Below, one piece after another: positions 8,733 through 64,000 of a stretch of 64,000 nt of DNA; within the stretch, counting starts at the first letter, position 1, and each line of letters opens with the position of its first letter. Both the position numbers and the translations under genes were made by a program. Source of the DNA: a virus; IMG/VR virus record IMGVR_UViG_3300005466_000025, positions 38,757 to 102,756 of that record. One strand, 5' to 3'. The notes below the pieces were generated by a model, which had not been told where the DNA came from, did not search any database, and was given only the letters and a program-made list of their open reading frames with translations.

Positions 8733-9562
8733 TGTTAATGTATAACAGAAGGGGTAGGGCCACTGGTGAGAAAATCGCCATGGCCCTACAGCTTCCCGAT
8801 GAGGTTCTAATTCGTTGGGGTAGTTCATTGAATCCCGAAGTCGATGAGGATTATGAAAGGGTGATTAATTCCTCAGAGGCAATCCAGAATGCAACGGATA
8901 AACTTCTTTCACTTGAAATGATGAGTGAGGGTGGATTGAATGTCCCCGCATGGGATGAGAATCCGGAGAATTTGGTGGAGCAGTATGGCTATCCAATTCT
9001 TGGACGAAAGCTGCGTCATGCAAGGGGAAGTGATATCCAGTTTTGTCTACAGAAAAGGGATCACCGTAGACCACGGGATTTCTATACTGTATATATTCCA
9101 ACAAACAGGGAGTATCGTGTTCATGTTGTTGGGGATCAGGCAGTAAGAGTACAGGCTAAATATCTGGACTTTCCAGAACAGAAAAAGGCTTGGATTAGGA
9201 ATTATGAATCCGGCTATCGGTTCCGTAATCCGCGTCTCAGGATGCATCGTAGGCGGCTACAGGACGCAATTAGGGCCGTTTCTATATTAGGTCTGGACTT
9301 TGGGGCGGTTGATTTGATTGTCGGGGATGATAATGAGACATATATTCTCGAAGTTAATACCGCACCTTCCTGCTCCCCATTGACAGGGGCATCCTACGTA
9401 AATGGGATCGCTAATCTGTTTGAACCCGGCGAAATCGAAGTTAATTTGGAGCCACTACAGCTTCTAACTAGCGACGATGAAGATGGGGATTCAGAGGATG
9501 ATGATGATTCCGATATCGAGGAGTATATAAGGGAGATGGAGAATGCCGCAATTACCGCGTAA
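8732..9562 (+). CDS. ATP-grasp ligase (RimK/YheCD-like)
   Basis: IRWGS, DK, REYRVHV, LGLDFGAVDL, LEVNTAP; acidic tail. Confidence 0.85.
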   Translation: MLMYNRRGRATGEKIAMALQLPDEVLIRWGSSLNPEVDEDYERVINSSEAIQNATDKLLSLEMMSEGGLNVPAWDENPENLVEQYGYPILGRKLRHARGSDIQFCLQKRDHRRPRDFYTVYIPTNREYRVHVVGDQAVRVQAKYLDFPEQKKAWIRNYESGYRFRNPRLRMHRRRLQDAIRAVSILGLDFGAVDLIVGDDNETYILEVNTAPSCSPLTGASYVNGIANLFEPGEIEVNLEPLQLLTSDDEDGDSEDDDDSDIEEYIREMENAAITA

Positions 9563-9970: not shown

Positions 9971-10149
9971 TGTCATATCTATGTAAGCACGGATACATGT
10001 TTTCATCGTGTCAAACATGCGTTGCAATTGAGGAAGCCGTTGAGGAATTCCTAATGGCACCGCCTGAAACAACCGTGGAAGATGACTATATGTATGATGT
10101 TTATCTGGAAATGGATGAGCGTCGTCTCAGCGAAACGGAGGAGAATTAA
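9970..10149 (+). CDS. hypothetical protein
   Basis: GGAGG RBS, TAATG coupling; CKHG..CQTC. Confidence 0.5.
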   Translation: MSYLCKHGYMFSSCQTCVAIEEAVEEFLMAPPETTVEDDYMYDVYLEMDERRLSETEEN

Positions 10150-15665: not shown

Positions 15666-16219
15666 ACTCCGGTCCCTCTCTTTTCAAAGTACACCTTCAT
15701 ATTCTTGTCAAAATGCTCCTGCTCCCCGATTTGTTTCATGGTGAGTCCACCACCATTTAAATGATGGACAACGACAGTCTCAATGTGCGCCATGGCTATT
15801 TCACTTTCCCATAGGCGGTCATGTAGATCATCGTCCTCCCAATATCCGCCTTCAAACCTCTCATCGAAGAAATCCCCATATTTCTCATATATGTCCTCAT
15901 AAATGATTCTAGGGACGCAGAAGAATGACCGTGGAAGGGTATCCCGTGGATCAGGAATCACCCTGGGCGTAGTGATGGCATTATTAATTGCCAAATCCCG
16001 CAATGTGCCATTTGTAAGCCATGTATCATTATTTGCCACAATAATATGATCCCCGGATGCAAGTCTCATGCCTAAATTAACTGAGGCACCGTATCCCAAG
16101 CCGTCATTGGCTACAATAATTAATTCATCATGGCCCACAAGGGAGTTCACGCACTTTTTAAGCATGAAATCAACATCCTTCAATCCATACATGTGAGGCA
16201 CGACCACGCTAAGCTTCAT
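15662..16219 (-). CDS. GT2-family glycosyltransferase
   Basis: LSVVVP, GYGASVNLG, NND, FDERF..GYWEDDD. Confidence 0.85.
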   Translation of the reverse strand: MKLSVVVPHMYGLKDVDFMLKKCVNSLVGHDELIIVANDGLGYGASVNLGMRLASGDHIIVANNDTWLTNGTLRDLAINNAITTPRVIPDPRDTLPRSFFCVPRIIYEDIYEKYGDFFDERFEGGYWEDDDLHDRLWESEIAMAHIETVVVHHLNGGGLTMKQIGEQEHFDKNMKVYFEKRGTGV

Positions 16220-16727
16220 TATTTTCCCCTAAAACATAAAAGTTTCCATCGGCAAATATGGCATATGGAGTAAATCCTAGCTTACGCAAATCTTCCTTTG
16301 CCTCCTTATAATCGTAATCAACAATCTTTGCCTTGAGATATTTTGTGTTTTTCGGCCATCTTCCGCCATTCTTGAAAATATTTTTTTCTTTTCCCCTAAC
16401 GTCAATTTTAATAAAATCTATTTTGGCCGTTTCGGCAATATTGTTGAATATTAGGGTGTCAAGGTCAAAATACCCCAAATCGAAGTATTTGTAGCAGATG
16501 TTATCATGATAAGCTAACAAACTTTTATCCATCAGAAAATTTGACCTATCACTTTCAAATGAGAGAATTTTGGCCTCAGGAAACATCATGGCGAACTGAA
16601 ATGAGGAGAATTTTGTTCTCACCCCCAGATCAACGATTAAATTGGGCTTAAAGTTTCTAGGGAGATTCCATTCACCCCGCCTGGAAACAATCTCGGCATC
16701 TGGCTTCATAAGTTTCTGTTCCTCCAA
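16209..16727 (-). CDS. FkbM-like methyltransferase
   Basis: IVDLG..ILSFE..IDFIKIDV.G.E; start uncertain. Confidence 0.65.
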   Translation of the reverse strand: MEEQKLMKPDAEIVSRRGEWNLPRNFKPNLIVDLGVRTKFSSFQFAMMFPEAKILSFESDRSNFLMDKSLLAYHDNICYKYFDLGYFDLDTLIFNNIAETAKIDFIKIDVRGKEKNIFKNGGRWPKNTKYLKAKIVDYDYKEAKEDLRKLGFTPYAIFADGNFYVLGENNEA

Positions 16728-45281: not shown

Positions 45282-45620
45282 GGGGCCGAACAGGTTTCGA
45301 CGGATAGACGGAGTGAACAGTTTGCATCGGTTTGAGACACCTTAATCTCACGGTAGAAAATAAATGCAGATAATACATCTGACCTGACTGTTTCTAAGTC
45401 TCGCTTCGGCGCAGCATTTAGAACCGCAACAGTCGCAGTCGCTTAACACTGGTCAACACAAGTTAAGCTGGCGCTCCCGGAAACGGGGCAAAGAAATACT
45501 CTTTCTTAGTTTAAGACGAAACTAAGTGGTGGACCTGATCGCACCAACGGTCGCCCCCAAGATGCTCAAAGAATTGTTTGCAAAGCTAGACGGACCCGAG
45601 TTCGATTCTCGGCGGCTCCA
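45282..45620 (+). ncRNA. ssrA: tmRNA
   Basis: 5' GGGGCCGAACAGGTTTCGAC; 3' T-arm CCGAGTTCGATTCTCGG + CGGCTCCA; G3:U70; resume context ATAAAT-GCA; tag ADNTSDLTVSKSRFGAAFRTATVAVA* at 45366-45446; TGATATACT promoter upstream. Confidence 0.92.
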
Positions 45621-50750: not shown

Positions 50751-51767
50751 ATGCCAGTAGACGCAACAAGCCTCCAAAAGGCACTTGACTCCATCTCAAA
50801 GACCTACGGGAGTGACACAGTGAGAATGGGGGATGAAGACGAGGAGGTAATTAGGGTTCCCACAGGGATTATCCAGTTGGATAGTCTCATTGGTGGCGGA
50901 TTCCCGCTTGGAAGATGGGTTCATCCCTATGGAGGGTATGGATCAGGTAAAAGTTTGACCAGTTTTCACCTAATCAGGGGCGCTCAGGAGATGGGTTTGA
51001 CCTGTGCCTACTATGACCTTGAAAAGCAGTACAACAAGAAGTGGGTTGAGTCAATTGGTGTTGACACAAGCAAGCTTCTTGTCGTTGAAGGCAATGAAAT
51101 TGAGCCTCTGGGTGAAAAAATGGACGTATTGTTGGGTGCCATCAATATTCACGTTGTGGACTCCGTTGGAATTGGTGTTTCAGTCCACAGACAGGCCGCA
51201 AGACTTGACGAATCCCGTCCTGCCTCCTCAGCAAGGGCATGGGGAGAGCTAATTCCTCGTCTTCAGTCCAGATTTGATCGTAAAAATAACATGATTGTTA
51301 TGATTAACCACGCCAGAGAGGTATTTGGCAAGCCAGGACAGGAAAAGCCTGTTGGAGGAAGCGCAATTGAGTTTGCCTCATCCCTCAGCCTTCATTTCAC
51401 TAAGTCAAGCTGGCTATATAGGGATAAAAATGGCAATTTGTCCGAGGAAGGACGCAAAATTGATGAGAGAACAGGCAGAACCAAGCCGGATGGCATTGAT
51501 TTGGTTGTCTCCGTCAAAAAGTCTCGCGTCAGTGACCCCTATGGTTCTGCTAGAATGCGTTTTGAGTTTGGTTCAGGTGGTCACTTCGATGAAACCTGGG
51601 CATTGAGCCGACAGGCCATTTTTGGCGGTCTAATTGCCAAGGCTGGAAGCTGGTACACCCTTCCTGATGGGGAAAGAGTGCAGGGGGAGAGCAAGGTTCG
51701 TCTCTATATTGAACAAAATCCTACTTTTGCAGAAAAACTAAGGGAGATGTTTTATGACAGCGAATAG
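50751..51767 (+). CDS. recA: RecA/UvsX-like recombinase
   Basis: GGFPLGR, GGYGSGKS, VVDSV, GG.A, GSWY. Confidence 0.9.
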   Translation: MPVDATSLQKALDSISKTYGSDTVRMGDEDEEVIRVPTGIIQLDSLIGGGFPLGRWVHPYGGYGSGKSLTSFHLIRGAQEMGLTCAYYDLEKQYNKKWVESIGVDTSKLLVVEGNEIEPLGEKMDVLLGAINIHVVDSVGIGVSVHRQAARLDESRPASSARAWGELIPRLQSRFDRKNNMIVMINHAREVFGKPGQEKPVGGSAIEFASSLSLHFTKSSWLYRDKNGNLSEEGRKIDERTGRTKPDGIDLVVSVKKSRVSDPYGSARMRFEFGSGGHFDETWALSRQAIFGGLIAKAGSWYTLPDGERVQGESKVRLYIEQNPTFAEKLREMFYDSE

Positions 51768-54257: not shown

Positions 54258-54545
54258 ATGGCGGAACCAAAACGACGACGCAGAAGATACCCAAAGAAAC
54301 ACAAGGACTATCTAAACACACAAAGGCACAGATATAATGAGTTGTTAAAGGCTCAGAATGGGAAGTGTGCCCTGTGTAATCGTCGTCCTACTGAACACCG
54401 AAAGTTGGACATGGATCATAATCACCAAACCATGCAGCTAAGGGGTTTATTGTGCGTGCCTTGTAATAGAGCGGTCCGGGACTGGATGACAGTCGAGTGG
54501 GCCTTAAGGCTTGCGGATTACCTGGACCCAAAACGAAAGGTATAA
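54258..54545 (+). CDS. endonuclease VII-like protein, leaderless
   Basis: QNGKCALC, DHNH, RGLLCVPCN. Confidence 0.85.
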   Translation: MAEPKRRRRRYPKKHKDYLNTQRHRYNELLKAQNGKCALCNRRPTEHRKLDMDHNHQTMQLRGLLCVPCNRAVRDWMTVEWALRLADYLDPKRKV

Positions 54546-54866
54546 GTGACTAGAAAATTTGCACATCCTGCTGAAGAACAGTTTGCAAAGATTCTAAACT
54601 TTTATGGTATTGATTGGCATTATGAACCGACAATGTTTGTACTCAGAACAGATGATGAAGGGATAACTAGAAAGGGATTCACTCCGGACTTTTATATCCC
54701 TGAGTATGATATCTATGTGGAGATTACTGTCATGGGAAAGCCACAGAAGAAGAGAAGAAAGATCAGTGAAACTATGGAGCTTTATCCAGAGCTTAATATT
54801 ATCTTAATGAATCGCACGGATATGGAGGAACTGGTCGAGAAATATAGTTTCCTGTTTGTAAATTAG
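54546..54866 (+). CDS. PD-(D/E)xK nuclease-like protein
   Basis: E..FA, W.YEP, FTPDFYIP..YVEI. Confidence 0.7.
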   Translation: MTRKFAHPAEEQFAKILNFYGIDWHYEPTMFVLRTDDEGITRKGFTPDFYIPEYDIYVEITVMGKPQKKRRKISETMELYPELNIILMNRTDMEELVEKYSFLFVN

Positions 54867-54924
54867 TTGTTTGGGGCTGGCGGGACTATGGTTTTTATGC
54901 TATAGTCCTGTCAGTAGCAAATTT

Positions 54925-55006
54925 GGAACCTCGCATTGGCGTGCTTATGCGGTTTGAACCCGTTGATGGTCGAGAGACCGTGGGAGTTCGACTCTCTCAG
55001 GTTCCG
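54925..55006 (+). tRNA. tRNA-Ser(UGA)
   Basis: GGAACCT/AGGTTCC acceptor, TGA anticodon, long variable arm. Confidence 0.8.
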
Positions 55007-55018
55007 TAGAAATAACAT

Positions 55019-55100
55019 GCGCGAGTGGTGGAACGGTATACACACTAGGCTTAGAACCTAGCGCCCTCCGGGATTGTGGGTTCGACTCCCACCTTGCGTA
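55019..55100 (+). tRNA. tRNA-Leu(UAG)
   Basis: cloverleaf, CTAGG-CTTAGAA-CCTAG. Confidence 0.9.
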
Positions 55101-55105
55101 CTTAT

Positions 55106-55179
55106 GCCCCTCTAACCCAATTGGTAGAGGTATCCGGTTTAAGCCCGGTCAAGTGAGAGTTCGAATCTCTCGGGGGGTA
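55106..55179 (+). tRNA. tRNA-Leu(UAA), short variable arm
   Basis: cloverleaf, 74 nt. Confidence 0.9.
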
Positions 55180-55184
55180 CTAAT

Positions 55185-55268
55185 GTCGATCTGGTGAAAT
55201 AGGTAGACACGCTAGCTTGAGGGGCTAGTTCCAGAAATGGAGTGCGGGTTCGACTCCCGCGTTCGACA
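55185..55268 (+). tRNA. tRNA-Leu(GAG)
   Basis: CTAGC-TTGAGGG-GCTAG, long variable arm. Confidence 0.9.
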
Positions 55269-55375
55269 CTATGAAATTAATGACGTTACAGCAAGCACAA
55301 GCTATGAAAATTGCAGAATTTAATTCCCTTTTTAAGGACGTAATTTTCACAGCAAAACGCGGCGGAATTAAATTT

Positions 55376-55453
55376 GCATCTTAGCCCAAGGTGGGCACGG
55401 TGGCTGTAACCCACCCGTCTAAGACATGGTAGGTTCGATTCCTACAGGATGCA
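55376..55453 (+). tRNA. tRNA-Tyr(GUA)
   Basis: GGTGG-CTGTAAC-CCACC. Confidence 0.85.
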
Positions 55454-55461
55454 CTTAAATT

Positions 55462-55857
55462 ATGAAGAATAACATCATCATCCTCACGCTTGTTGGAATA
55501 ATTGGATTGATGGCTGTTATCACAGTTTATTCCCTGACAAGTAAGACGGAAAAGGCACCAAAGGTTGCCAGGATAACAACATCATCAACCACAAGGGAAA
55601 TTAATAAGTTCTTTAGCAATGCGAGTGTTGAAGTTGTATCTAATCAAGTTGTTTGGAGTCTTAACAAGACTGATCTATTGGAGGAGACGGCATATGCGGC
55701 GGCTCGGGCGGATACTAAGGTGGAGAAGATTGGCTTTAGGAAATACTTTTTGTCCCAAGGCGGTGTAATCTATAGACAAGTGTGCTATAATCTACATGCG
55801 TTTGATGAGGCATGGTCGCTAGGATATTGTGTACATAGGAATATAGAGAAGGGTTAG
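55462..55857 (+). CDS. membrane-anchored hypothetical protein
   Basis: N-terminal TM. Confidence 0.6.
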   Translation: MKNNIIILTLVGIIGLMAVITVYSLTSKTEKAPKVARITTSSTTREINKFFSNASVEVVSNQVVWSLNKTDLLEETAYAAARADTKVEKIGFRKYFLSQGGVIYRQVCYNLHAFDEAWSLGYCVHRNIEKG

Positions 55858-55859
55858 AA

Positions 55860-55922
55860 ATGGAATTCGGTCTGTTGGGTCTTATATTACTTATCATCAT
55901 TATCGTTTTAATTGTAAGATAA
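55860..55922 (+). CDS. 20-aa hydrophobic peptide MEFGLLGLILLIIIIVLIVR
   Basis: GAAGGG RBS, single TM. Confidence 0.4.
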   Translation: MEFGLLGLILLIIIIVLIVR

Positions 55923-55925
55923 CAC

Positions 55926-56013
55926 GGAATGGCAAGCCGATGGTTGGCGACGGCACTCCCCTGCTAAGGGAGCGAGCTTAAAAGCCTTGTGGGATCGTTC
56001 CCCACCCTTTCCG
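55926..56013 (+). tRNA. tRNA-Ser(GCU)
   Basis: CTCCC-CTGCTAA-GGGAG, long arm, atypical T-loop. Confidence 0.85.
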
Positions 56014-56016
56014 CTC

Positions 56017-56367
56017 ATGAGAAGAATATTAGATAATATAGCCATCATATTCTTGGTGATTGTTGTCACAGGTGGCTTTATCTATTCCTTATATCAGGGT
56101 TTCTTTGAGGATACAGGGGCGAGGGCCAGATTGGCTATCTCAAATAATATCAAATCCTGTCAGGATAACATAGCCAAGGCCGTTGTGTTTGAGCAGTTCG
56201 CTAGGGAGGCCGCAGCCGCCAGACGTGCCCAGGCTGCCGCTGATTTTAAAGCGGGAGATGAAATCTCAGCCAAGAATAATCTTGCCACGGCGGAACGCTA
56301 TGAGTCCTTCGCTCATCAATGGGATGTATTGACAGTTAAGGACTGTCGTAAGGAATACGGAGGCTAG
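56017..56367 (+). CDS. membrane-anchored hypothetical protein
   Basis: ATG just after the tRNA; TM + two Cys like the 24832/25166 proteins. Confidence 0.6.
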   Translation: MRRILDNIAIIFLVIVVTGGFIYSLYQGFFEDTGARARLAISNNIKSCQDNIAKAVVFEQFAREAAAARRAQAAADFKAGDEISAKNNLATAERYESFAHQWDVLTVKDCRKEYGG

Positions 56368-56411
56368 TAAGGATTTTGTAAGGCCCTCTTTTTTTGTGCT
56401 ATACTCCTATC

Positions 56412-56822
56412 ATGATACGACTGAGAAGCGAGAAGGGACAGGGCGATGTTGGTTTCGTCCTCGCAATCGGATTCGTTGCAGTCATTGTTCTTGTAGGTTT
56501 TGTTACCCTTCTATTTGGAGCTAAGGCTTATTCCAGATATCAGAAGAGGGCTGACGCCGAAAACCAAGTTAAGGTGACGGCAATTCAGATCAGGAACCAG
56601 GAACAGCGAGTCAAGATTGCACAGCAGAAGGCGCAGATTAGATATCAGGAGGCAATTGGTATTCGTCGCGCCCAGGATGAAATTGCAAAGACCCTGAATA
56701 GAAACTATCTTACACACGAATATATTCAGGCTCTTAGGGAATCACATGCAACAACTGTTTATATCCCGACTAGCCCGACAGATGGACTTCCCGTTGTAAC
56801 AACAAGAAACGCAGGAGACTAA
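56412..56822 (+). CDS. membrane protein, SPFH/band-7 C-terminal-like, leaderless
   Basis: TM, EAIGIRRAQ..I..TL...YL, VYIPT..GLPV. Confidence 0.65.
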   Translation: MIRLRSEKGQGDVGFVLAIGFVAVIVLVGFVTLLFGAKAYSRYQKRADAENQVKVTAIQIRNQEQRVKIAQQKAQIRYQEAIGIRRAQDEIAKTLNRNYLTHEYIQALRESHATTVYIPTSPTDGLPVVTTRNAGD

Positions 56823-56827
56823 ACAGC

Positions 56828-56850
56828 AAGGCCCCCTTCCGGGGGCCTTA
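56828..56850 (+). terminator. GC hairpin terminator
   Basis: AAGGCCCCC-TTCC-GGGGGCCTT. Confidence 0.6.
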
Positions 56851-56904
56851 ACTGTCGCGGGATGAGCTACCAAAAGCATTATACCAATATGGTATAATGA
56901 TTAT

Positions 56905-57900
56905 GTGAGATTAACCGTAGGAAGTTTGTTTAGTGGATGTGGCGGATTAGATTTGGGAATGGAAAGGGCTGGATTCGACACCATATGGATGTGCGAAAAC
57001 GACAAATGGTGCAGGAAGATTCTGAACAAGAATTGGCCTGGTATTCACTTATACGAAGACGCGAATACGTTCATGCCAGACTCGGTAGACATATTGATTG
57101 GTGGATTCCCGTGTCAGCCAGTGTCATTCGCAGGGAGAAGAAATGGAGTTGATGATCCTAAATGGCTATGGCCCGCTTATGAAAGAACCATTCGCAATCT
57201 TCGACCCAGATACGTTATCGTGGAAAACGTACCCGGACTCTTCAGACACGGATTCGATGAAGTTCTCGGATCGTTGGCCCTACAGGGGTATAATGCTGAA
57301 TGGTTCAGTCTACAATCTTCAGACATTGGAGCGCCCCACAGACGAAAAAGAGTTTTTATTCTTGCTACCAACTCCGGTAGCCTGGGACTCAGGAAGGACA
57401 ACAAAGGCCCATCTGGCAAACAAGGCAAAGCTAGGGGAAGGGAGAAAAATGATTACTTCCCTCAACGTCTTAGTGAGGAATCAATTTCAGCAGCCGCTCT
57501 TGCCGACACCGTTAGTGGACGATTCAAAAAACGGCAAAAGGGGTGGGAGTTACAACTCATTGAGTCGGAGCGTGATTCTGTTGCCAACTCCGACAGCAAA
57601 TATGAGTACAGGGCCGGGAGGATTCAAGGTACGCGGGGGCAAGAATTTGCAGACAGCGATTTCGGAAATTACGCAGAGGCTATTAGACGATGGTCTGAAC
57701 TCAATGGACTCCCTCCCGCCCCAAGAGACGAGCAAGGAAGAATGAGTCCCTACTTCGTTGAATGGATGATGGGATTCCCTGAGGGATGGACAGAAGGTGT
57801 ATCGAAAACACAGCGGCTAAAAATGCTAGGTAATAGTGTTCAGGTTCAATGCGCCCAGGTTGCAGGGAACCTCATAAGAGAGAAGGTTAAGAATGAGTAA
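56905..57900 (+). CDS. DNA cytosine-5 methyltransferase
   Basis: motif I SLFSGCGG, IV GGFPCQ, VI ENV, VIII RKRVF, X LGNSV. Confidence 0.92.
   Translation: MRLTVGSLFSGCGGLDLGMERAGFDTIWMCENDKWCRKILNKNWPGIHLYEDANTFMPDSVDILIGGFPCQPVSFAGRRNGVDDPKWLWPAYERTIRNLRPRYVIVENVPGLFRHGFDEVLGSLALQGYNAEWFSLQSSDIGAPHRRKRVFILATNSGSLGLRKDNKGPSGKQGKARGREKNDYFPQRLSEESISAAALADTVSGRFKKRQKGWELQLIESERDSVANSDSKYEYRAGRIQGTRGQEFADSDFGNYAEAIRRWSELNGLPPAPRDEQGRMSPYFVEWMMGFPEGWTEGVSKTQRLKMLGNSVQVQCAQVAGNLIREKVKNE
57143..57745 (+). CDS. alternative-frame ORF nested in the methyltransferase (LLPTP repeats)
   Basis: 200 codons open in the +1 frame, GGGAG RBS, SWKT..WP..G.M.NG and three LLPTP units. Confidence 0.65.
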   Translation: MELMILNGYGPLMKEPFAIFDPDTLSWKTYPDSSDTDSMKFSDRWPYRGIMLNGSVYNLQTLERPTDEKEFLFLLPTPVAWDSGRTTKAHLANKAKLGEGRKMITSLNVLVRNQFQQPLLPTPLVDDSKNGKRGGSYNSLSRSVILLPTPTANMSTGPGGFKVRGGKNLQTAISEITQRLLDDGLNSMDSLPPQETSKEE

Positions 57901-58126
57901 ACAATTTCTAACAATCGGGGAGGTTTCAAAACAAGTTGGTAGAGTATCCCACACCATAAGACAGTGGGAGAGGGACGGCCGTCTGCCTCCAAGACTTCTT
58001 CCCTCAAGGGATGAGAATGGATGGAGGGTTTGGACGGTAGATCAGGTTGAGGAACTAAAGGTTTGGATAGAGAAGGAGGACCTTCGCCCAGGCAAGGCAC
58101 TTCCATACAATAATAAGGAGAAATAA
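57893..58126 (+). CDS. MerR-family HTH protein
   Basis: LTIGEVSKQVG..TIRQWERDG...RDENGWR. Confidence 0.85.
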   Translation: MSKQFLTIGEVSKQVGRVSHTIRQWERDGRLPPRLLPSRDENGWRVWTVDQVEELKVWIEKEDLRPGKALPYNNKEK

Positions 58127-58354
58127 ATGAGTAGCAGCACAACAACTGCTAGTTCAGGAGTGAGTCTAGGGTTTCTTGAATTCCTGACGCTCATCTTCAT
58201 TACCCTAAAACTAACTGGTTATATTGACTGGTCATGGTGGTGGGTTCTGTCTCCACTGTGGGCACAGCTAGTTGTCTTTGTAATCGCCCTTATAACAGTT
58301 CTGTTGTATGCGGCTGGAAGTATCAAGAGAGGAAAAGCAGATGGCATCAGATGA
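58127..58354 (+). CDS. small membrane protein
   Basis: FITLKLTGYIDWSWWWVLSPLW, a common phage membrane motif. Confidence 0.75.
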   Translation: MSSSTTTASSGVSLGFLEFLTLIFITLKLTGYIDWSWWWVLSPLWAQLVVFVIALITVLLYAAGSIKRGKADGIR

Positions 58355-58556
58355 GGCACTAGATACATTCACATTCACAGTTGAGGAGAAAATTGGACTT
58401 AAGGATTATTCAAACATCCTAGTTCGGGCCTCCCTGTCCAGACAGATTCCCGACGATGAGGATGCACGCAAGGATGTTATCAATATCGTGGAGAATATTC
58501 TGGTAATGGAGCGTCGTATTGTCCTAGAGGACCTAGGGGTAGAAGTAAAGTCTTAG
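58341..58556 (+). CDS. hypothetical protein
   Basis: GAGGA RBS. Confidence 0.55.
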   Translation: MASDEALDTFTFTVEEKIGLKDYSNILVRASLSRQIPDDEDARKDVINIVENILVMERRIVLEDLGVEVKS

Positions 58557-58599
58557 TAAAGTCGCCCCACAGGGGCAGAATCTTTGCTATAGTTCTTGG

Positions 58600-58672
58600 T
58601 GCGCGTTGGAGAAGCGGTTACCTCGCAAGCTTCATAAGCTTGAGAACCCTGGTTCGAATCCAGGACGCGCTA
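58600..58672 (+). tRNA. tRNA-Met(CAU), initiator-like
   Basis: 1:72 mismatch, A11:U24, but lacks the three G-C anticodon pairs. Confidence 0.8.
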
Positions 58673-58673
58673 C

Positions 58674-58703
58674 TTGACAAGGGACGGTGAAGTATGCTAC
58701 ACT
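58674..58703 (+). promoter_or_regulatory. sigma70/SigA-type promoter for the main tRNA array
   Basis: TTGACA-N18-TACACT with extended TG. Confidence 0.7.
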
Positions 58704-58754
58704 TTGTCGAAATGGGGATACGTCCCCGAGAAACTTGACAACTTAGTAGGTCAT

Positions 58755-58828
58755 CTGGATGTAGGAAAGCTTGGCAATCCGTCTGCTTTGGGAGCAGAAG
58801 ACCGCTGGTTCGAATCCAGCCATCCGGA
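58755..58828 (+). tRNA. tRNA-Pro(UGG)
   Basis: cloverleaf, G37. Confidence 0.9.
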
Positions 58829-58945
58829 CTGTTGCGACTAATCTAGATACGTCGCAATCGTGAGTGGTGACCCGTTAATTCACCACCGTTACCCAATAGG
58901 CGTTGTATTGGGGGTGCCCCCGCCTACCAAAATGTGGGGTATTAT

Positions 58946-59020
58946 CTGGGTGTAGCTCAGCTTGGTCAGAGTAATCGCCTTGGACGCGAGAAGTCGCAGG
59001 TTCGAATCCTGCTGCCCAGA
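58946..59020 (+). tRNA. tRNA-Pro(UGG), A37 variant
   Basis: cloverleaf, loop CTTGGAC. Confidence 0.85.
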
Positions 59021-59025
59021 CTGGA

Positions 59026-59071
59026 AGCAACTGTGTGGATACGTAAAAGTGTTGCTGAAAGTAAGTCCACA
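59026..59071 (+). ncRNA. nested-pseudoknot spacer RNA, copy 1
   Basis: P1 AGCAAC/GTTGCT, P2 TGTGGAT/GTCCACA, P3 AC/GT. Confidence 0.5.
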
Positions 59072-59075
59072 ACCC

Positions 59076-59151
59076 GATGGTATAGTGAAGTCAGGCCTAT
59101 CACGTCTCCCTGTCAAGGAGAAGAACACGGGTTCGAATCCCGTTATCATCG
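59076..59151 (+). tRNA. tRNA-Asp(GUC)
   Basis: cloverleaf. Confidence 0.9.
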
Positions 59152-59220
59152 CTAAAGAGAGTCCCTTCGATCCCTGGACGGACGCGCGCCTAGAGGTAAG
59201 ACGCAATACTCTCTTAACTA

Positions 59221-59292
59221 GCAGCAATAATTCAGTGGTAGAATGTCTGCTTGCCAAGCAGAATGTCGTGAGTTCGAATCTCACTTGTTGCT
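59221..59292 (+). tRNA. tRNA-Gly(GCC)
   Basis: cloverleaf. Confidence 0.9.
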
Positions 59293-59375
59293 CTTATCTG
59301 CCTAAGTCAGTCCTCGGCGTATGGCGAGAGGAATATGGGAGCCTGGAACCCATAGGTAAAAAATGCACGGCAAAT

Positions 59376-59447
59376 GAGTCGGAAGTATCTGGTGATATCC
59401 CTGGGCTGTGACTCCGGGCGGGTAGGGTTCGATCCCCTAACGACTCT
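59376..59447 (+). tRNA. tRNA-His(GUG), atypical
   Basis: GTG anticodon and T-arm present; no clear G-1:C73. Confidence 0.6.
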
Positions 59448-59517
59448 TAGTGGTTCATGCCTTGCCTGCAAGGGCGGAAAGAACGGATACTACAAGGCCC
59501 GTCACCACTAATTTTAA

Positions 59518-59590
59518 GCTTCCTTATTGTTAATGGTTAGCAAACGTGCCTTCCAAGCATGGAGTGTCAGTTCAAATCTGACAGGAAGCT
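59518..59590 (+). tRNA. tRNA-Gly(UCC)
   Basis: cloverleaf. Confidence 0.85.
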
Positions 59591-59595
59591 CTCAA

Positions 59596-59668
59596 GTCTC
59601 TATAGCTCAGTGGAAAAGAGCAACGGGTTTCTACCCCGTGAGCCTAGGTTCGAATCCTAGTAGGGACT
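59596..59668 (+). tRNA. tRNA-Arg(UCU)
   Basis: cloverleaf. Confidence 0.9.
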
Positions 59669-59791
59669 CTGTGAATAAGATTCGGCGCAGGGCGTACCTT
59701 GGCGCGGCAACAGAACAAGTGCGGGACTTACCGGGAAGTACAAGCAACTAGGCGAGACGGCGCTGAACGGGAGAAAGTCCCTCCCAAATAT

Positions 59792-59866
59792 GGAACATTA
59801 GCTAAAATGGACAAAGGCACCTGGCTCTTAACCAGGAGATTCTAGGTTCGATCCCTAGATGTTCCA
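59792..59866 (+). tRNA. tRNA-Lys(CUU)
   Basis: cloverleaf. Confidence 0.9.
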
Positions 59867-59868
59867 CT

Positions 59869-59966
59869 TTATTAACTCCCTGGATGGGTATCTGGCTCGA
59901 AACCAGTGTAATAAGAAATGGTGTTCTCCGCGGAACGTAGAGAGTTCGATTCTCTCCGGTTGATAA
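59869..59966 (+). ncRNA. tRNA-like RNA, CGA (Ser) loop, abnormal D and variable regions
   Basis: terminal stem, CTGG-CTCGAAA-CCAG, canonical T-arm GAGAG-TTCGATT-CTCTC. Confidence 0.55.
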
Positions 59967-59971
59967 AACTT

Positions 59972-60045
59972 GCCCCTCTAGCCCAATTGGCAGAGGCACG
60001 GCACTCAAAACGCCGACAGTCTGAGTTCGAATCTCAGGTGGGGTA
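59972..60045 (+). tRNA. tRNA-Leu(CAA), short variable arm
   Basis: cloverleaf, 74 nt. Confidence 0.9.
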
Positions 60046-60047
60046 CT

Positions 60048-60299
60048 ATGAAACACCTAATGAAATTTGAAGCTGATTGGTGTGGCCCATGTCATGCCAT
60101 TAGACCGCTAGTTGAAAAGATTGCGGATGAGAATGAACTAGATATAGTGGTGGTTGATATTGATAAGGACAGTGACGTTGCCACCCTGTATGGAGTCGCC
60201 TCAATTCCAACAATCATTTTGATTGAGGATGGTTCAGAAGTAGCAAGGCATATTGGTTCCGCGCCAAAATCCACAATAGAAAAGAACTTGAATTTATAG
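60048..60299 (+). CDS. trxA: thioredoxin
   Basis: WCGPC, SIPT. Confidence 0.92.
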   Translation: MKHLMKFEADWCGPCHAIRPLVEKIADENELDIVVVDIDKDSDVATLYGVASIPTIILIEDGSEVARHIGSAPKSTIEKNLNL

Positions 60300-60374
60300 A
60301 CTAGTACGCCCTCTGGCTGATAACCAGTTGAAAGGCTATGCGGATACAAAATGGTTCGAATCCATTCTAGTCTA
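60298..60374 (+). ncRNA. D-armless tRNA-Ile(GAU)-like RNA
   Basis: AGACTAG/CTAGTCT acceptor, CTGG-CTGATAA-CCAG, T-arm; only 8 nt where the D-arm should be. Confidence 0.65.
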
Positions 60375-60450
60375 CTGGGTAAGGAATTTGTTAAAAAGGG
60401 TCGATTCCCACCCCAAACTTGAAATCTTGTGCTATAATCCTTAGCACACA

Positions 60451-60587
60451 AGGGGAGATATGGGTTAAACTGTATCTTCCCACCATGCCTCTCACAGTCT
60501 TACGGCTGTCAGAGGCTCCTGGCCCCCAGTACCCTAACGGGGAAAAGGGCAGCCTGGAAGGAGAGGGGTAAAAGCCTCTCCTTCCCC
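60451..60587 (+). ncRNA. unknown multi-hairpin RNA downstream of a TGCTATAAT promoter
   Basis: GGGAGATAT/GTATCTTCC, GCCTCT..ACAGTC/GGCTGT..AGAGGC, GGAAGGAGAGG/CCTCTCCTTCC. Confidence 0.45.
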
Positions 60588-60594
60588 CAAACTT

Positions 60595-60667
60595 AGGCAA
60601 TTAGCTCAGCCGGGAGAGCGCCGTTCTTACAAATCGGAGGCCGGGGGATCGAAGCCCTCATTGCCTA
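60595..60667 (+). tRNA. tRNA-Val(UAC)
   Basis: cloverleaf, T-loop ATCGAAG. Confidence 0.85.
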
Positions 60668-60671
60668 TCAA

Positions 60672-60743
60672 GTCAAAGTGACCGAGCGGATAGGTATGAG
60701 TCTGCAAAACTCATTCACGCTGGTTCGAATCCAGTCTTTGACT
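60672..60743 (+). tRNA. tRNA-Cys(GCA)
   Basis: cloverleaf, U73. Confidence 0.9.
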
Positions 60744-60776
60744 CTTCCTTTTCCTAGGATAAAAAGGAGGTACCAT

Positions 60777-60869
60777 ATGACAGCAATTAAACCAGGAAAG
60801 CTTTCGACACTTACTGTCGCCTGGACTCCGACCTGGACCGCTAATTGGTCGCCAGTCTGGTCAATGTAA
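60777..60869 (+). CDS. 30-aa Trp-periodic peptide
   Basis: AAAGGAGGT RBS; MTAIKPGKLSTLTVAWTPTWTANWSPVWSM. Confidence 0.6.
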   Translation: MTAIKPGKLSTLTVAWTPTWTANWSPVWSM

Positions 60870-60960
60870 GTCAAGAGATGGGTTAGGTATTTTCTAGATA
60901 AATCCAGCATTCAAGGCCGCGCCTTTGCCTAACGAGGGAAGTAAAATGCGGTCAATAAAT

Positions 60961-61032
60961 GGGGCTGTAAGCTAATCAGGAAACTACCTGCTTTGCACGC
61001 AGGAATACGGGGAGCATAACCCCGCCGCTCCA
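60961..61032 (+). tRNA. tRNA-Ala(UGC)
   Basis: G3:U70, TGC anticodon, atypical T-loop AGCATAA. Confidence 0.8.
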
Positions 61033-61033
61033 C

Positions 61034-61086
61034 TCCCTTCAAGTAGAGATACCAAGTGATCATGGTGAGGGAAACTAAAGTCTCTA
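61034..61086 (+). ncRNA. nested-pseudoknot spacer RNA, copy 2
   Basis: P1 TCCCTT/GAGGGA, P2 TAGAGAT/GTCTCTA, P3 ACCA/TGGT. Confidence 0.55.
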
Positions 61087-61091
61087 TACAT

Positions 61092-61163
61092 TCCAGCTTG
61101 GCGCAAAGGTAGCGCAATCGGCTGTTAACCGAGAGGTTCTAGGTTCGAATCCTAGAGTTGGAG
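61092..61163 (+). tRNA. tRNA-Asn(GUU)
   Basis: cloverleaf. Confidence 0.9.
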
Positions 61164-61235
61164 CTAGCGGAGGGGCATATGGACAGACTCCGTATGTTAA
61201 ATGAGGGGCGTATCGCCCCCGCCCCAATGCCACAT

Positions 61236-61307
61236 TCCTCAGTAGCTTAGTAGTAGAGCAGCAGTCTCATAAGCTGTAAGGCAATGGTGCAACTCCATTC
61301 TGAGGGA
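61236..61307 (+). tRNA. tRNA-Met/Ile2(CAU)
   Basis: GCAGT-CTCATAA-GCTGT. Confidence 0.8.
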
Positions 61308-61341
61308 CTATATTGAACCACAGCTTGTGTTATAATATAGC

Positions 61342-61650
61342 ATGAGCAAGCAGGCAGAATATTCGTCTAAATGGTACAATAATAATAAGCAGTTGCAGAA
61401 GCAAAGAGTTGACAGTAGAAGAAGGGAAATGACCCAATTTCTGTTCTCTCTAAAGAAAAATAAGAAGTGTGCGTTCTGTTCAGAGAGTGAGCCAGCTTGT
61501 CTAGACTGGCATCACACTAGAGATAAGATCGTAGATGTAAGTCAGATTCCAAAGATGGGTTGGGGTAAGGAGAAAGCATTAGAAGAAATTTCAAAGTGCA
61601 TTCTTGTTTGCGCCAACTGTCACAGGAAACTACACGCCGGATTAGTTTAA
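61342..61650 (+). CDS. HNH endonuclease, leaderless
   Basis: CAFC..CLDWHH..KCILVCANCHRKLH; last codons overlap tRNA-Thr. Confidence 0.85.
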   Translation: MSKQAEYSSKWYNNNKQLQKQRVDSRRREMTQFLFSLKKNKKCAFCSESEPACLDWHHTRDKIVDVSQIPKMGWGKEKALEEISKCILVCANCHRKLHAGLV

Positions 61651-61707
61651 CTGGTAAAACACGACTCTTGTAAAGTTGTGAACAGGGTTCAAGTCCTTGA
61701 TTCGGCT
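61636..61707 (+). tRNA. tRNA-Thr(UGU)
   Basis: GCCGGAT/ATTCGGC, CGACT-CTTGTAA-AGTTG. Confidence 0.85.
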
Positions 61708-61708
61708 T

Positions 61709-61732
61709 AGGGTTCGATTCCTAGACGTGGCT
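61709..61732 (+). pseudogene. orphan tRNA 3' fragment (T-arm + acceptor strand)
   Basis: GGTTCGATTCCTAG-ACGTGGC-T. Confidence 0.55.
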
Positions 61733-61827
61733 CTTATGCTATAATGTTCCCTTAGGCTCCTAGCTCCTAAAATTGGACGTGAGCCTACGCGCAGGTAAAG
61801 GCATGGCGTAACAGATGCCTTGTGTTT

Positions 61828-61901
61828 GCACCTTGGCAGGCCGGTTGTTTGGAGGTATCTTATAAGTATCTTTAAGCTTGGTTCGACTCCAAGAGGGTGT
61901 A
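61828..61901 (+). tRNA. tRNA-Ile(UAU)
   Basis: GCACCTT/AGGGTGT, GGTAT-CTTATAA-GTATC, canonical T-arm. Confidence 0.75.
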
Positions 61902-61904
61902 TAA

Positions 61905-62072
61905 ATGGAATATACAAAAACACAGTGGGAGTCATTCCCGACAACAAAGGATGCGGAAGTTATTTCATGCCAGTATTGTGAGAACGAAACTGTTGTGAAA
62001 GCTAACAAATTCGTAACACGGTACACATGTCCTACGTGCTATAGTGTACCTAAGTTAAGCAAGCGCAAGTAA
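61905..62072 (+). CDS. 55-aa zinc-ribbon protein
   Basis: CQYC...CPTC. Confidence 0.55.
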   Translation: MEYTKTQWESFPTTKDAEVISCQYCENETVVKANKFVTRYTCPTCYSVPKLSKRK

Positions 62073-62075
62073 CAT

Positions 62076-62146
62076 GGCCCTATCGTCTAATGGTAGGACG
62101 GGTGCCTTTCAAGCATCTAACCGGGGATCGTAACCCCGTAGGGCTA
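62076..62146 (+). tRNA. tRNA-Glu(UUC)
   Basis: cloverleaf, T-loop ATCGTAA. Confidence 0.85.
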
Positions 62147-62150
62147 CTAA

Positions 62151-62222
62151 CGCTCATTAGCTCAACGGAAAGAGCATTGGTCTTCGAAACCAAGAGTGAA
62201 GGTTCGATTCCTTCATGGGCGT
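62151..62222 (+). tRNA. tRNA-Arg(UCG)
   Basis: TTGGT-CTTCGAA-ACCAA. Confidence 0.85.
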
Positions 62223-62377
62223 CTGGCAGGAAGTCACATTTAAGTTGAAGTGACTGATAGTAGATGAAGATGGAAGATGGAGGTAGAAGTAGTACAGTCG
62301 TAGTTCTGCATCATCGACTTCCTGCCAATTTGTTTGGTGGACCGGGACTCCTGGGTAAGAGTAAAAACTGCCCAATA

Positions 62378-62449
62378 TCCTCCGTAGCGTACTGGCAGCG
62401 CACACGCCTTTTAAGCGACGAGGACAGGGTTCGATTCCCTGCGGGGGGA
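62378..62449 (+). tRNA. tRNA-Lys(UUU)
   Basis: cloverleaf with a weak anticodon stem. Confidence 0.8.
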
Positions 62450-62450
62450 C

Positions 62451-62503
62451 TGGCGAAGGTGTCGTTCGAATCGACTATGGTGTAACCTGGAAGCACATCG
62501 CCA
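62451..62503 (+). ncRNA. circularly permuted tRNA-elbow mimic (T-arm before D-arm, Y-RNA/YrlA-like)
   Basis: TGGCGA/TCGCCA closing stem; GTCG-TTCGAAT-CGAC; GTGT-AACCTGGAA-GCAC. Confidence 0.6.
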
Positions 62504-62578
62504 TGAATCCATGCGACGGCATGGGGGTACCAGGGTATCTGGTTGTTCGTCGGGGTCAACCTTAATCAATCCGACCAT

Positions 62579-62650
62579 TTCTCAGTCGTCTAATTGGCAG
62601 GACAGCGGACTTTGAATCCGCGAATCTGGGTTCGAATCCTAGCAGAGAAA
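62579..62650 (+). tRNA. tRNA-Gln(UUG)
   Basis: cloverleaf. Confidence 0.9.
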
Positions 62651-62717
62651 CTACACCCCTCCGAATGGGTCATAGACTAGTCCGGCTACCCCTGAAATAG
62701 AGCCGGGAGGGGATCAA

Positions 62718-62790
62718 TGCTTCTTAGCTCAGAGGATAGAGCGCGTCCCTGCGAAGGACGAGGCCATAGGTTCGATTCCTATAGGGGCAA
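62718..62790 (+). tRNA. tRNA-Arg(GCG)
   Basis: CGTCC-CTGCGAA-GGACG. Confidence 0.85.
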
Positions 62791-62791
62791 T

Positions 62792-62995
62792 ATGATAATT
62801 AAATTAGGACCAATAGTGATTATGGATTCCAAGACAAGGGAGGCCTATAGGGAACTCCTAACAGAGGCATATTTGGTTCATCAAAATATTTGGTTTTCAC
62901 AGGATTGGGCGCAATCTGAGCAGGAAATTAAGAATGCAGATTCCCATCTTTCTGAAGCAATTTCACATGTACCAGCAAGTGAATTAGAAATTTAG
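62792..62995 (+). CDS. hypothetical protein
   Basis: ATG 2 nt after the tRNA, 67 aa. Confidence 0.5.
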   Translation: MIIKLGPIVIMDSKTREAYRELLTEAYLVHQNIWFSQDWAQSEQEIKNADSHLSEAISHVPASELEI

Positions 62996-63348
62996 AGTGG
63001 AAGACTTGTGCGGCGGAATTCCAACACCGTCGAGGAAGTTCGGGCCACATGAATGCGCTAGACTTGCGAGGAGGCGCAGGAAACGAGCAGAAAAAGTGGG
63101 AGCGGTCGTAAGCTAACGATGGGAAACCGGGAGAAATAGCTGGCCGCGCCTTACCACAAATTCGTCGGTGTGTAACCTCAAGACGCCCTTAGTCTAAGGG
63201 GCATGGTAGAGGGCAGCTAATAATTTAGCCATATGGAGTCATAGTGTCCCTTCTCTACGAAGGTGGTAAGCCCTGAGGTCACGTACAGGCGCTCCATATG
63301 AGACAGATGCAAGTCCACGACAGAATCCCGGCTACGAAACTCTAAATT
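62989..63348 (+). ncRNA. rnpB: RNase P RNA (ribozyme)
   Basis: P1 AATTTAGAGT/ACTCTAAATT; P2 GACTTGT/GCAAGTC; P3; CR-I GAGGAAGTTCGGGC; P4 pairing with CCCGGCT; L15 GGT; CR-IV AGACAGATG; CR-V ACAGAATCCCGGCTA. Confidence 0.88.
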
Positions 63349-63399
63349 AACAAAATATTGACCTACTAAGTTGAAATTTGTGTTATAGTAATCAAACAC

Positions 63400-63470
63400 A
63401 GGCTGTTGGTGTAACAGCAGCATGAACGGCTCCAACCCGTTTGGCGAGGGTGCAAATCCTTCACGGCCTG
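63400..63470 (+). tRNA. tRNA-Trp(CCA)
   Basis: cloverleaf, G73; promoter TGTTATAGT upstream. Confidence 0.85.
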
Positions 63471-63510
63471 CTAGTCCTTGGCCCCCGGACTTTTAAAATA
63501 GGGGCAACAT

Positions 63511-63584
63511 GTTGATGTAGCTCAGCTAGGTAGAGCATTCGGTTGAAGCCCGCAAGGTCACAGGTTCGAGTCCTGTCGTCAACA
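63511..63584 (+). tRNA. tRNA-Phe(GAA)
   Basis: cloverleaf, G37. Confidence 0.9.
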
Positions 63585-63589
63585 CTCTT

Positions 63590-63662
63590 GTTCCATTGGT
63601 CTAACGGTCAGGACGCCGCCCTCTCAAGGCGGAGGCTATGGGTTCGAATCCCATATGGAATA
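63590..63662 (+). tRNA. tRNA-Glu(CUC)
   Basis: cloverleaf. Confidence 0.9.
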
Positions 63663-63671
63663 TGAGGCAAG

Positions 63672-63743
63672 TAGGTTGTGGTGTAATGGTTAGCACACCG
63701 GGGTTTGACCCGGAGGAGCCGCGTTCGAATCGGGTCAGCCGAA
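63672..63743 (+). tRNA. degenerate tRNA (UUG-like, 6-nt anticodon loop)
   Basis: D-arm and T-loop intact; CCGGG-GTTTGA-CCCGG; mismatches in acceptor and T stems. Confidence 0.5.
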
Positions 63744-63809
63744 AGCTTCAACTAAAAGAGTAAATTTCGGGATTTAACTACTCTTTCAAAAAACTTTTAA
63801 ATCCCACTT

Positions 63810-63881
63810 TCCACAGTCGTCTAACGGGTAGGACGCTGGACTCTGAATCCAGTAATCTAGGTTCGAATCCTAGTAGTGGAG
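63810..63881 (+). tRNA. tRNA-Gln(CUG)
   Basis: CTGGA-CTCTGAA-TCCAG. Confidence 0.9.
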
Positions 63882-63907
63882 CTAACAGCCGGATGAATGT
63901 AAGTAAT

Positions 63908-63934
63908 AAGGTCCCTTCGGGGGCCTTTTTTGTT
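63908..63934 (+). terminator. rho-independent terminator ending the tRNA array
   Basis: AAGGTCCC-TTCG-GGGGCCTT + T run. Confidence 0.85.
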
Positions 63935-63967
63935 ATCCTTTTAGTGAGCTACTGAAAGGAGGCAAAC

Positions 63968-64000
63968 ATGGCTGTAGAGCTATCACTAGATAGAAAGGCA
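63968..64000 (+). CDS. start of next gene (truncated by the window edge)
   Basis: GAAAGGAGG RBS + ATG. Confidence 0.5.
   Translation, partial: MAVELSLDRKA

Follow-up and report, generated by a model that had tools for sequence, protein, structure and literature searches.

Folded non-tRNA RNAs are known from phage tRNA clusters, among them the stable RNAs of phage T4 (species 1 and 2) and other structured tRNA spacers. A catalytic class, the theta ribozymes, comprises minimal relatives of the hepatitis delta virus (HDV) ribozyme that lie at the 3' ends of phage tRNAs, most of them without CCA; these ribozymes require a G1 where cleavage occurs, a P1.1 helix and a short P4, and they depend strictly on a cytosine as the first J4/2 base (Kienbeck et al., 2024; PMC10879173). 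In a 64,000-nucleotide stretch of viral DNA (the window; positions 38,757 to 102,756 of IMG/VR record IMGVR_UViG_3300005466_000025), an earlier sequence-only reading had singled out two short RNA elements beside tRNA genes, here copies 1 and 2, as nested pseudoknots of HDV-like helix order, and had suggested either a new minimal ribozyme variant or a new ligand- or protein-binding motif. We find that the two elements are part of a larger set, of six or more predicted pseudoknots of the classical H-type, each situated in the 5' leader of a tRNA gene, and their sequence indicates that they are not HDV-like self-cleaving ribozymes.

The window holds about 33 tRNA genes between 54,925 and 63,882, all on the plus strand and interleaved with small open reading frames (ORFs), as located by ARAGORN and Rfam. 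For each tRNA-tRNA spacer the best pair of crossing helices was scored against dinucleotide shuffles, and a second, end-anchored criterion required the pseudoknot to end 2-6 nucleotides (nt) ahead of the next tRNA. Six of 16 spacers hold a crossing-helix pseudoknot ending 3-5 nt ahead of the next tRNA, against 0.22 expected from the shuffles, and six or more hits were reached in none of 200,000 simulated draws. The tRNAs so preceded are Asp, Asn, Ile-UAU, Gln-UUG, Phe and Gln-CUG. Energy alone set four window spacers apart from all 100 of their shuffles (copies 1 and 2, Phe and Gln-CUG); end-anchoring added Ile(UAU) and Gln(UUG), whose long spacers have the element at the extreme 3' end. The set, with helix lengths in base pairs (bp) where given and one larger candidate at the end, is as follows.

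59026..59071, plus strand: pseudoknot before tRNA-Asp (copy 1), filling the tRNA-Pro to tRNA-Asp spacer; better than 100 of 100 shuffles; shuffle frequency 0.005.
61034..61087, plus strand: pseudoknot before tRNA-Asn (copy 2), filling the tRNA-Ala to tRNA-Asn spacer; better than 100 of 100 shuffles; shuffle frequency 0.01.
61786..61821, plus strand: pseudoknot before tRNA-Ile(UAU); P1 61786-90/61806-10, P2 61798-804/61815-21; shuffle frequency 0.02.
62541..62575, plus strand: pseudoknot before tRNA-Gln(UUG); P1 GGUUG 62541-45/CAACC 62557-61, P2 62549-54/62570-75; shuffle frequency 0.035.
63473..63505, plus strand: pseudoknot before tRNA-Phe, in the Trp-to-Phe spacer; P1 AGUCC 63473-77/GGACU 63487-91, P2 GCCCC 63481-85/GGGGC 63501-05; equalled in 0/100 and 0/200 shuffles.
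63755..63805, plus strand: pseudoknot before tRNA-Gln(CUG); P1 of 8 bp 63755-62/63779-86, P2 of 9 bp 63769-77/63797-805; equalled in 0/100 and 0/200 shuffles.
55305..55374, plus strand: candidate larger pseudoknot before tRNA-Tyr; P1 of 10 bp 55305-14/55340-49, P2 of 11 bp 55317-27/55364-74; shuffle frequency 0.01.

Helices are perfect in all six elements, with 5-8 bp in P1 and 5-9 bp in P2, and the loop lengths suit the helices that they cross: loop 1 runs 2-7 nt over a P2 of 5-9 bp, and loop 3 runs 4-10 nt over a P1 of 5-8 bp. Adenine makes up 28 of 46 loop-3 bases in the four window elements that were found without a composition filter together with one element from a relative (L002, below). 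Loop 2, the site of the P3 helix noted earlier, is reduced to 1-2 nt in four of the six and carries an insert of 10-16 nt in copies 1 and 2. Thus the tRNA-Ile(UAU) element, which by eye lies downstream of a promoter of the TGCTATAAT type, has G as loop 2, ACAG as loop 3 and a GUGUU tail; the tRNA-Gln(UUG) element has GU, UUAAUCAA and CAU; the tRNA-Phe element has C, UUUAAAAUA and AACAU; and the tRNA-Gln(CUG) element has C, CAAAAAACUU and ACUU. The tRNA-Tyr candidate, with a 1-nt tail, overlaps a possible 37-codon ORF. The six elements have no conserved sequence in common.

Position further distinguishes the set from the arrangement first described. Counted from C74 of the upstream tRNA, copy 1 starts after 5 nt and copy 2 after 1 nt, and gaps among the sister elements include 10 nt, 78 nt (past tRNA-Thr, for the Ile element) and 90 nt (past tRNA-Lys, for the Gln-UUG element). 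The distance from the upstream tRNA therefore ranges from 1 to 90 nt across the six, against a tail of 3-5 nt before the downstream tRNA, and the gaps of 78 and 90 nt in the two long spacers identify the downstream tRNA as the fixed partner. The description 'directly 3' of tRNAs' is accurate for copies 1 and 2 only owing to the shortness of their spacers, and does not extend to sister elements that adjoin the downstream tRNA in long spacers.

Could short spacers simply happen to allow two crossing helices, as a neutral by-product with no selected function? Such pairs are indeed common: each strand of the 103-kb genome has about 17 pairs of crossing 6+7 bp helices spaced like those of the copies, so that a single copy alone is unremarkable, and looser rules give 30-48. 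The nested-fold z-scores are ordinary. The genome as a whole, however, is not enriched in such folds, with 48 and 31 per strand where shuffles give 30-46, which makes the enrichment specific to tRNA spacers, where six stand at a fixed distance from tRNAs against 0.22 expected; loop 3 is A-rich in every element found without a composition filter; and the same fold precedes tRNA-Asp in L002. Across about 62 spacers from eight unrelated phage arrays, moreover, the rate is at background, with 2 hits where about 0.8 would be expected. The excess is thus confined to the tRNA leaders of this phage, and we regard an origin by chance as unlikely. In Microbacterium phage Big4 (L138), an unrelated actinophage, similar pseudoknots at 9110-9167 and 10027-10088 end 2-3 nt ahead of tRNA-Glu and tRNA-Phe; the related phage Pumpernickel gave no score at the matching spacers.

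A search for related loci in viral, metagenome and genome contigs returned L002 with an array, a truncated relative (L003) and short contigs, and L002, at 38% protein identity, was the only relative found with an array. A pseudoknot lies in its Trp-to-Asp spacer, before tRNA-Asp; its sequence is unrelated and its fold the same, it scores better than 100 of 100 shuffles, and its loop 3 is UUAAAAAUGUAA. Unrelated sequences thus form the pairs in the in-genome copies and in the tRNA-Asp element of L002, which are not aligned orthologues. A protein search gave 28 relatives of a neighbouring gene, up to 94% identical. In more distant relatives tRNAs are few, and the small cluster that they include is tightly packed. 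Scans for the DNA patterns CGGCGTATGGCGAG and one of tRNA-Asn led to the contig of L002 only, and contigs from four public sequencing runs were identical to the window or came from unrelated tRNAs, with no variants. Leader pseudoknots in phage tRNA arrays were not found described in the literature.

The two flagged copies lie between these four tRNA genes.

58946..59021, plus strand: tRNA-Pro(UGG), second copy; ARAGORN and Rfam (58 bits); ends N73-C-U, without encoded CCA; upstream neighbour of copy 1.
59076..59152, plus strand: tRNA-Asp(GUC); ARAGORN and Rfam; preceded by copy 1.
60961..61032, plus strand: tRNA-Ala(UGC) with G3:U70; Rfam only (34.4 bits), missed by ARAGORN; upstream neighbour of copy 2.
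61092..61164, plus strand: tRNA-Asn(GUU); ARAGORN and Rfam; preceded by copy 2.

Both copies are present as the sequence-only reading had drawn them, each pair having been checked by script, and the topology of crossing P1 and P2 holds in both. In copy 1, P1 joins AGCAAC (59026-59031) to GTTGCT (59051-59056) by 6 Watson-Crick pairs, and P2 joins TGTGGAT (59034-59040) to GTCCACA (59065-59071) by 7 bp including one G-U; loop 1 is UG, loop 2 spans 59041-50, the A-rich joiner at 59057-59064 is GAAAGTAA (GAAAGUAA as RNA loop 3), and a 4-nt tail, ACCC, leads to the start of tRNA-Asp. In copy 2, TCCCTT (61034-61039) and GAGGGA (61067-61072) form a P1 of 6 bp including one G-U, (G)TAGAGAT (61043-61050) and GTCTCTA(T) (61080-61087) form a P2 of 7-8 bp, the joiner that makes up loop 3 is AACTAAA (AACUAAA; 61073-61079) with its C at 61075, and the 4-nt tail to tRNA-Asn is ACAU. 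As had been claimed, P1 and outer P2 differ wholly between the copies with pairing retained in both, and GATAC (at the inner end of P2) and AAGTC (at the boundary of joiner and P2') are common to them; GATAC is a common pentamer genome-wide and was rejected as a signal. The third helix fared unevenly. It is credible in copy 2, where ACCA (61051-54) pairs with UGGU (61063-66) by 4 bp and the minimum-free-energy fold contains P2 with this loop-2 hairpin stacked on it. It is weak in copy 1, where AC/GT alone gives 2 bp and, in the minimum-free-energy fold, AC can pair equally well with a GU in the joiner. An alignment of the two copies by MAFFT was out of structural register and was not used for pair counts. 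Copies 1 and 2 represent a variant with extra loop-2 sequence and may be paralogues of each other.

The heptamer GAUACGU recurs in three consecutive spacers (58712-58725, 58843-58856 and 59037-59044). The first site is a plain GGGGA-UACG-UCCCC hairpin with a UNCG-type loop; at the second, which follows the first tRNA-Pro, the heptamer occupies the loop of a 7-bp hairpin. The spacers that follow both tRNA-Pro copies may be diverged duplicates.

According to the ribozyme interpretation, copies 1 and 2 would be minimal self-cleaving RNAs of HDV topology, cut at the 5' end of P1 so as to create the 3' end of the upstream tRNA. Their helix order, P1-P2-(P3)-P1'-J-P2', is that of HDV; P1 begins 1-5 nt past the upstream tRNA, cleavage in the class lying within 5 nt of the tRNA 3' end; the phage tRNAs are without CCA, like most tRNAs associated with theta ribozymes (PMC10879173); and the joiner of copy 2 has a C followed by UAAA. 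The elements that define the class are nevertheless missing. There is no G1·U wobble, P1 opening with A59026-U59056 in copy 1 and with U61034-A61072 in copy 2, and the adjoining bases do not allow P1 to be extended by a G·U pair in either. P1.1, a second pseudoknot nested between L3 and the bases that follow P1, is absent, the GA (copy 1) and AA (copy 2) that follow P1' having no complement in the P3 loops GUAAAA and AGUGAUCA, and P4 is absent from every element; both absences had already been recorded in the earlier reading, as had the presence of a joiner C in copy 2 and its lack in copy 1. The joiner of the tRNA-Phe element, like that of copy 1, is without C, and C61075 of copy 2 stands third, not first. 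P3, about 3 bp long in the class, has 2 bp in copy 1 and 4 in copy 2, and four sister pseudoknots have 1-2 nt in its place. Rfam gave no HDV-type match in 54500-64000 at E <= 10, RF00094 had no match in the genome, and the best match to RF02682 (E = 0.37) fell on the other strand at the tRNA-Tyr gene. That the set is anchored to the downstream tRNA also speaks against cleavage to free the upstream one. An RNA-library contig covers 58993-59143 without a cut, which is weak evidence because its depth is 2 and it may derive from DNA. On this evidence a self-cleaving ribozyme of HDV type is extremely improbable, and the earlier suggestion of a ribozyme of the HDV-like or theta class is not borne out, although the motif is uncatalogued, as that reading implied, the elements falling outside the Rfam models searched. 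Only marginally more credible, and still very hard to sustain, is a new minimal catalytic or ligand-responsive RNA that would keep the HDV-like order without P1.1 and P4 and control release of the neighbouring tRNA; were copies 1 and 2 of this kind, the simpler pseudoknots would be inactive or structural relatives.

A binding site without catalysis has a little more to recommend it. The elements could be aptamers, for instance of a preQ1-I-like type coupling release of queuosine-family tRNAs to precursor supply, or sites for a phage or host protein. A P1 of 5-6 bp, a short loop 1 and an A-rich loop 3 resemble preQ1-I; Asp, Asn, the Tyr of the larger candidate and the Asp of L002 are queuosine-family tRNAs; and loop 2 ends in C directly before the 3' strand of P1 in the Phe, Gln-CUG and L002 Asp elements. 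Yet the best match to the PreQ1 model RF00522 (10.6 bits, E = 1.4) lies at 51713-51747, outside all spacers, the elements precede tRNAs rather than queuosine or transport genes, and a P2 of 5-9 bp would be stable without ligand. Ile, Phe and both Gln are not queuosine tRNAs, tRNA-His has no pseudoknot, and the six elements have no common sequence. We therefore judge an aptamer to be decidedly unlikely. More doubtful still is mimicry of an RNase P substrate, in which stacked P1 and P2 with the 3' tail would imitate an acceptor/T-arm and RNase P would also cut in the spacer. Plant-virus tRNA-like structures are a model for such imitation, the stacked helices total 10-17 bp, near the 12 bp of an acceptor/T minihelix, and the tail after P2 in copy 1 is ACCC. 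However, a CCA-like tail is confined to copy 1, the 5' and 3' ends leave at opposite ends of the stacked helix, unlike those of a tRNA acceptor stem, and helix lengths vary widely.

We tentatively propose that the leader pseudoknots may serve as caps or boundary markers for tRNA processing and at the same time as folding insulators. The array would be transcribed into multi-tRNA precursors in which host RNase P would cut the 5' end of each tRNA, so that the upstream fragment would then end as a compact pseudoknot with a single-stranded tail of 3-5 nt. RNase R, RNase II and PNPase have overhang requirements, and such a tail would be too short for 3'-to-5' exonucleases to load, shielding the fragment until RNase Z cuts. 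RNase Z would cut precisely after N73 and CCA would then be added, the route left for tRNAs that do not encode CCA. The pseudoknot would also keep the leader sequence from mispairing with neighbouring tRNAs.

Several points weigh against this proposal. The scan thresholds were set after the first four pseudoknots had been seen, which inflates the significance somewhat, though not by the roughly 25-fold observed. Two of the six, Ile (p = 0.11) and Gln-UUG (p = 0.30), are not significant by energy alone and were counted for their position, and the nested-fold z-scores (-1.7 to +0.3) are uninformative. Evidence of conservation comes from the copies within this genome and from a single distant relative, L002. 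A structured leader reaching up to position -5 may hinder the protein subunit of RNase P. Finally, other spacers of the array close with plain hairpins at a similar distance from the tRNA, so that a cap does not explain the need for a pseudoknot.

The same hairpins bear on a narrower possibility, that of a folding insulator or RNase P positioning device only, which would lock the leader and present a defined single-stranded leader of 3-5 nt (often AC-N-U) without blocking exonucleases. The constant distance to the tRNA start favours it, as do the AC at positions -4/-3 in 12 of 32 tRNAs and the closing of pseudoknot-less spacers by hairpins at a similar distance. It leaves the crossing helices and the A-rich loop 3 unexplained, however, a hairpin being sufficient for such a task, and from sequence alone it is indistinguishable from the cap. 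We consider it somewhat unlikely, though deserving of real attention beside the cap and boundary function that we tentatively favour.

The genome that carries the array, 102.8 kb with a G+C content of 46%, comes from rhizosphere metagenomes; the record (102,756 bp) is complete, with direct terminal repeats, and the window is its final 64 kb. No phage record is more than about 36% identical to its DnaE-type polymerase, which places it far from cultured phages. A tmRNA gene (45282-45620) lies upstream of the array and a terminator (63908-63927) follows it. None of the tRNAs encodes CCA, nearly all ending N73-C-U, and the phage encodes neither a CCA-adding enzyme nor an RNase Z-type fold. Rfam, at gathering thresholds and at E <= 10, reported tRNAs and the tmRNA only, and contigs from RNA libraries cover parts of the array at a depth of 2-5 and may be DNA. 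Several tRNA-like genes are atypical, being untyped or missed by ARAGORN (59870-59968, 60298-60374, 54925-55005 and 63672-63743); among them are a Ser(CGA)-like gene whose variable arm is long (by eye), one resembling Ile(GAU) (Rfam 30.5 bits), a Sec-like match (27.6 bits) and one with a 2-base 'anticodon'.

TG-extended -10 boxes (TGCTATAAT, TGCTATAGT, TGTTATAAT) recur within 54880-63390, for example near 58695, 60432, 61331, 61738 and 63382, and the array seems accordingly to be divided into several transcription units; the consensus promoter scan detects only those that also have a -35 box. Two ORFs without a ribosome-binding site begin 1-2 nt past a tRNA gene: at 60047-60050 the ATG of a thioredoxin gene (60048) comes directly after tRNA-Leu, and at 55270-55275 a possible 37-codon ORF follows tRNA-Leu(GAG). 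By analogy with mitochondrial transcripts, in which tRNAs likewise mark gene boundaries, an RNase Z cut would leave nearly leaderless mRNAs for such ORFs. A 30-codon ORF with a ribosome-binding site (60777-60869) encodes a Trp/Thr-rich peptide, MTAIKPGKLSTLTVAWTPTWTANWSPVWSM, and is kept in L002 at 19988-19835 on the minus strand (MTAIKVSTGS...WTPAVTMAWTPNW...).

Other spacer RNAs are shared with L002. One, at 59294-59375 of the window and 18601-18518 (minus strand) of L002, is a hairpin with the invariant loop GGCGUAUGGCGA whose stem covaries, pairing as UCCUC/GAGGA in the window and as CUUCC/GGAAG in L002; another covarying hairpin comes after it. This RNA is absent from Rfam, and its 14-mer gave no further tRNA-array relative in IMG/VR. 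Another, at 59670-59791 and at L002 19158-19004 (minus strand), reads AACAGAAC(A/G)AGUGCGGG ... ACGGGAGAAA(GU/AC)CCCUCCCA, with compensating changes in a GGGAC/GUCCC pairing. The segment GTCCACGACAGAATCCCGGCTAC (63313-63335) is one that we take to be like the 3' P4 strand of bacterial RNase P RNA, and L002 has GACAGAACCCGGCTTAT at the matching place, in a 530-nt spacer at about 15830-16359 (minus strand). A phage-encoded RNase P RNA was considered and rejected, RF00010 and RF00011 having no match anywhere in the genome.

Phage tRNA arrays counter host defences and codon bias, and the processing of their long precursors is poorly understood. A pseudoknot repeated at a fixed distance before tRNA starts would constitute a simple processing signal. 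The case also illustrates that HDV-like strand order is by itself insufficient to call a theta-type ribozyme beside a phage tRNA. With theta ribozymes the elements share a setting in phage tRNA arrays without CCA and, in copies 1 and 2, a start 1-5 nt past the tRNA and the strand order of P1, P2 and P3; they differ in having no G1·U, P1.1, P4, obligatory catalytic C or covariance-model match, and in that the sister elements are without P3 and are placed relative to the downstream, not the upstream, tRNA.

Closer in architecture are H-type pseudoknots whose loop 3 is A-rich, the preQ1-I aptamer and the luteovirus frameshift pseudoknots among them; these likewise combine two crossing helices, a loop 1 of 2-7 nt and an A-rich loop 3 that fits the minor groove of stem 1. 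The phage elements, in contrast, lie in tRNA leaders rather than mRNA, have a longer P2 and, in copies 1 and 2, a loop-2 insert of 10-16 nt, and the PreQ1 model has no match in the spacers. Like species 1 and 2 of T4, they are folded non-tRNA RNAs among phage tRNAs that would be released by tRNA-processing enzymes, but they are smaller (33-54 nt), pseudoknotted, repeated and held at a fixed distance from the next tRNA. In eukaryotes, the 3' ends of MALAT1 and MEN-beta are formed by an A-rich triple helix, immediately followed by a tRNA-like RNA that RNase P cuts. There too a compact structure with an A-rich strand precedes an RNase P site and becomes the 3' end of the upstream RNA, as we suppose would happen here. 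The resemblance is limited to this arrangement: the phage case concerns a bacterial virus, true tRNAs and an H-type pseudoknot instead of a U·A-U triple helix, and the two U-rich motifs that clamp an A-rich tract are absent from the elements, in which the A-rich strand is loop 3 of the pseudoknot. Within that limit, the leader pseudoknots could be the equivalent, in a bacterial virus, of the structured 3' ends made by RNase P in eukaryotic long non-coding RNAs.

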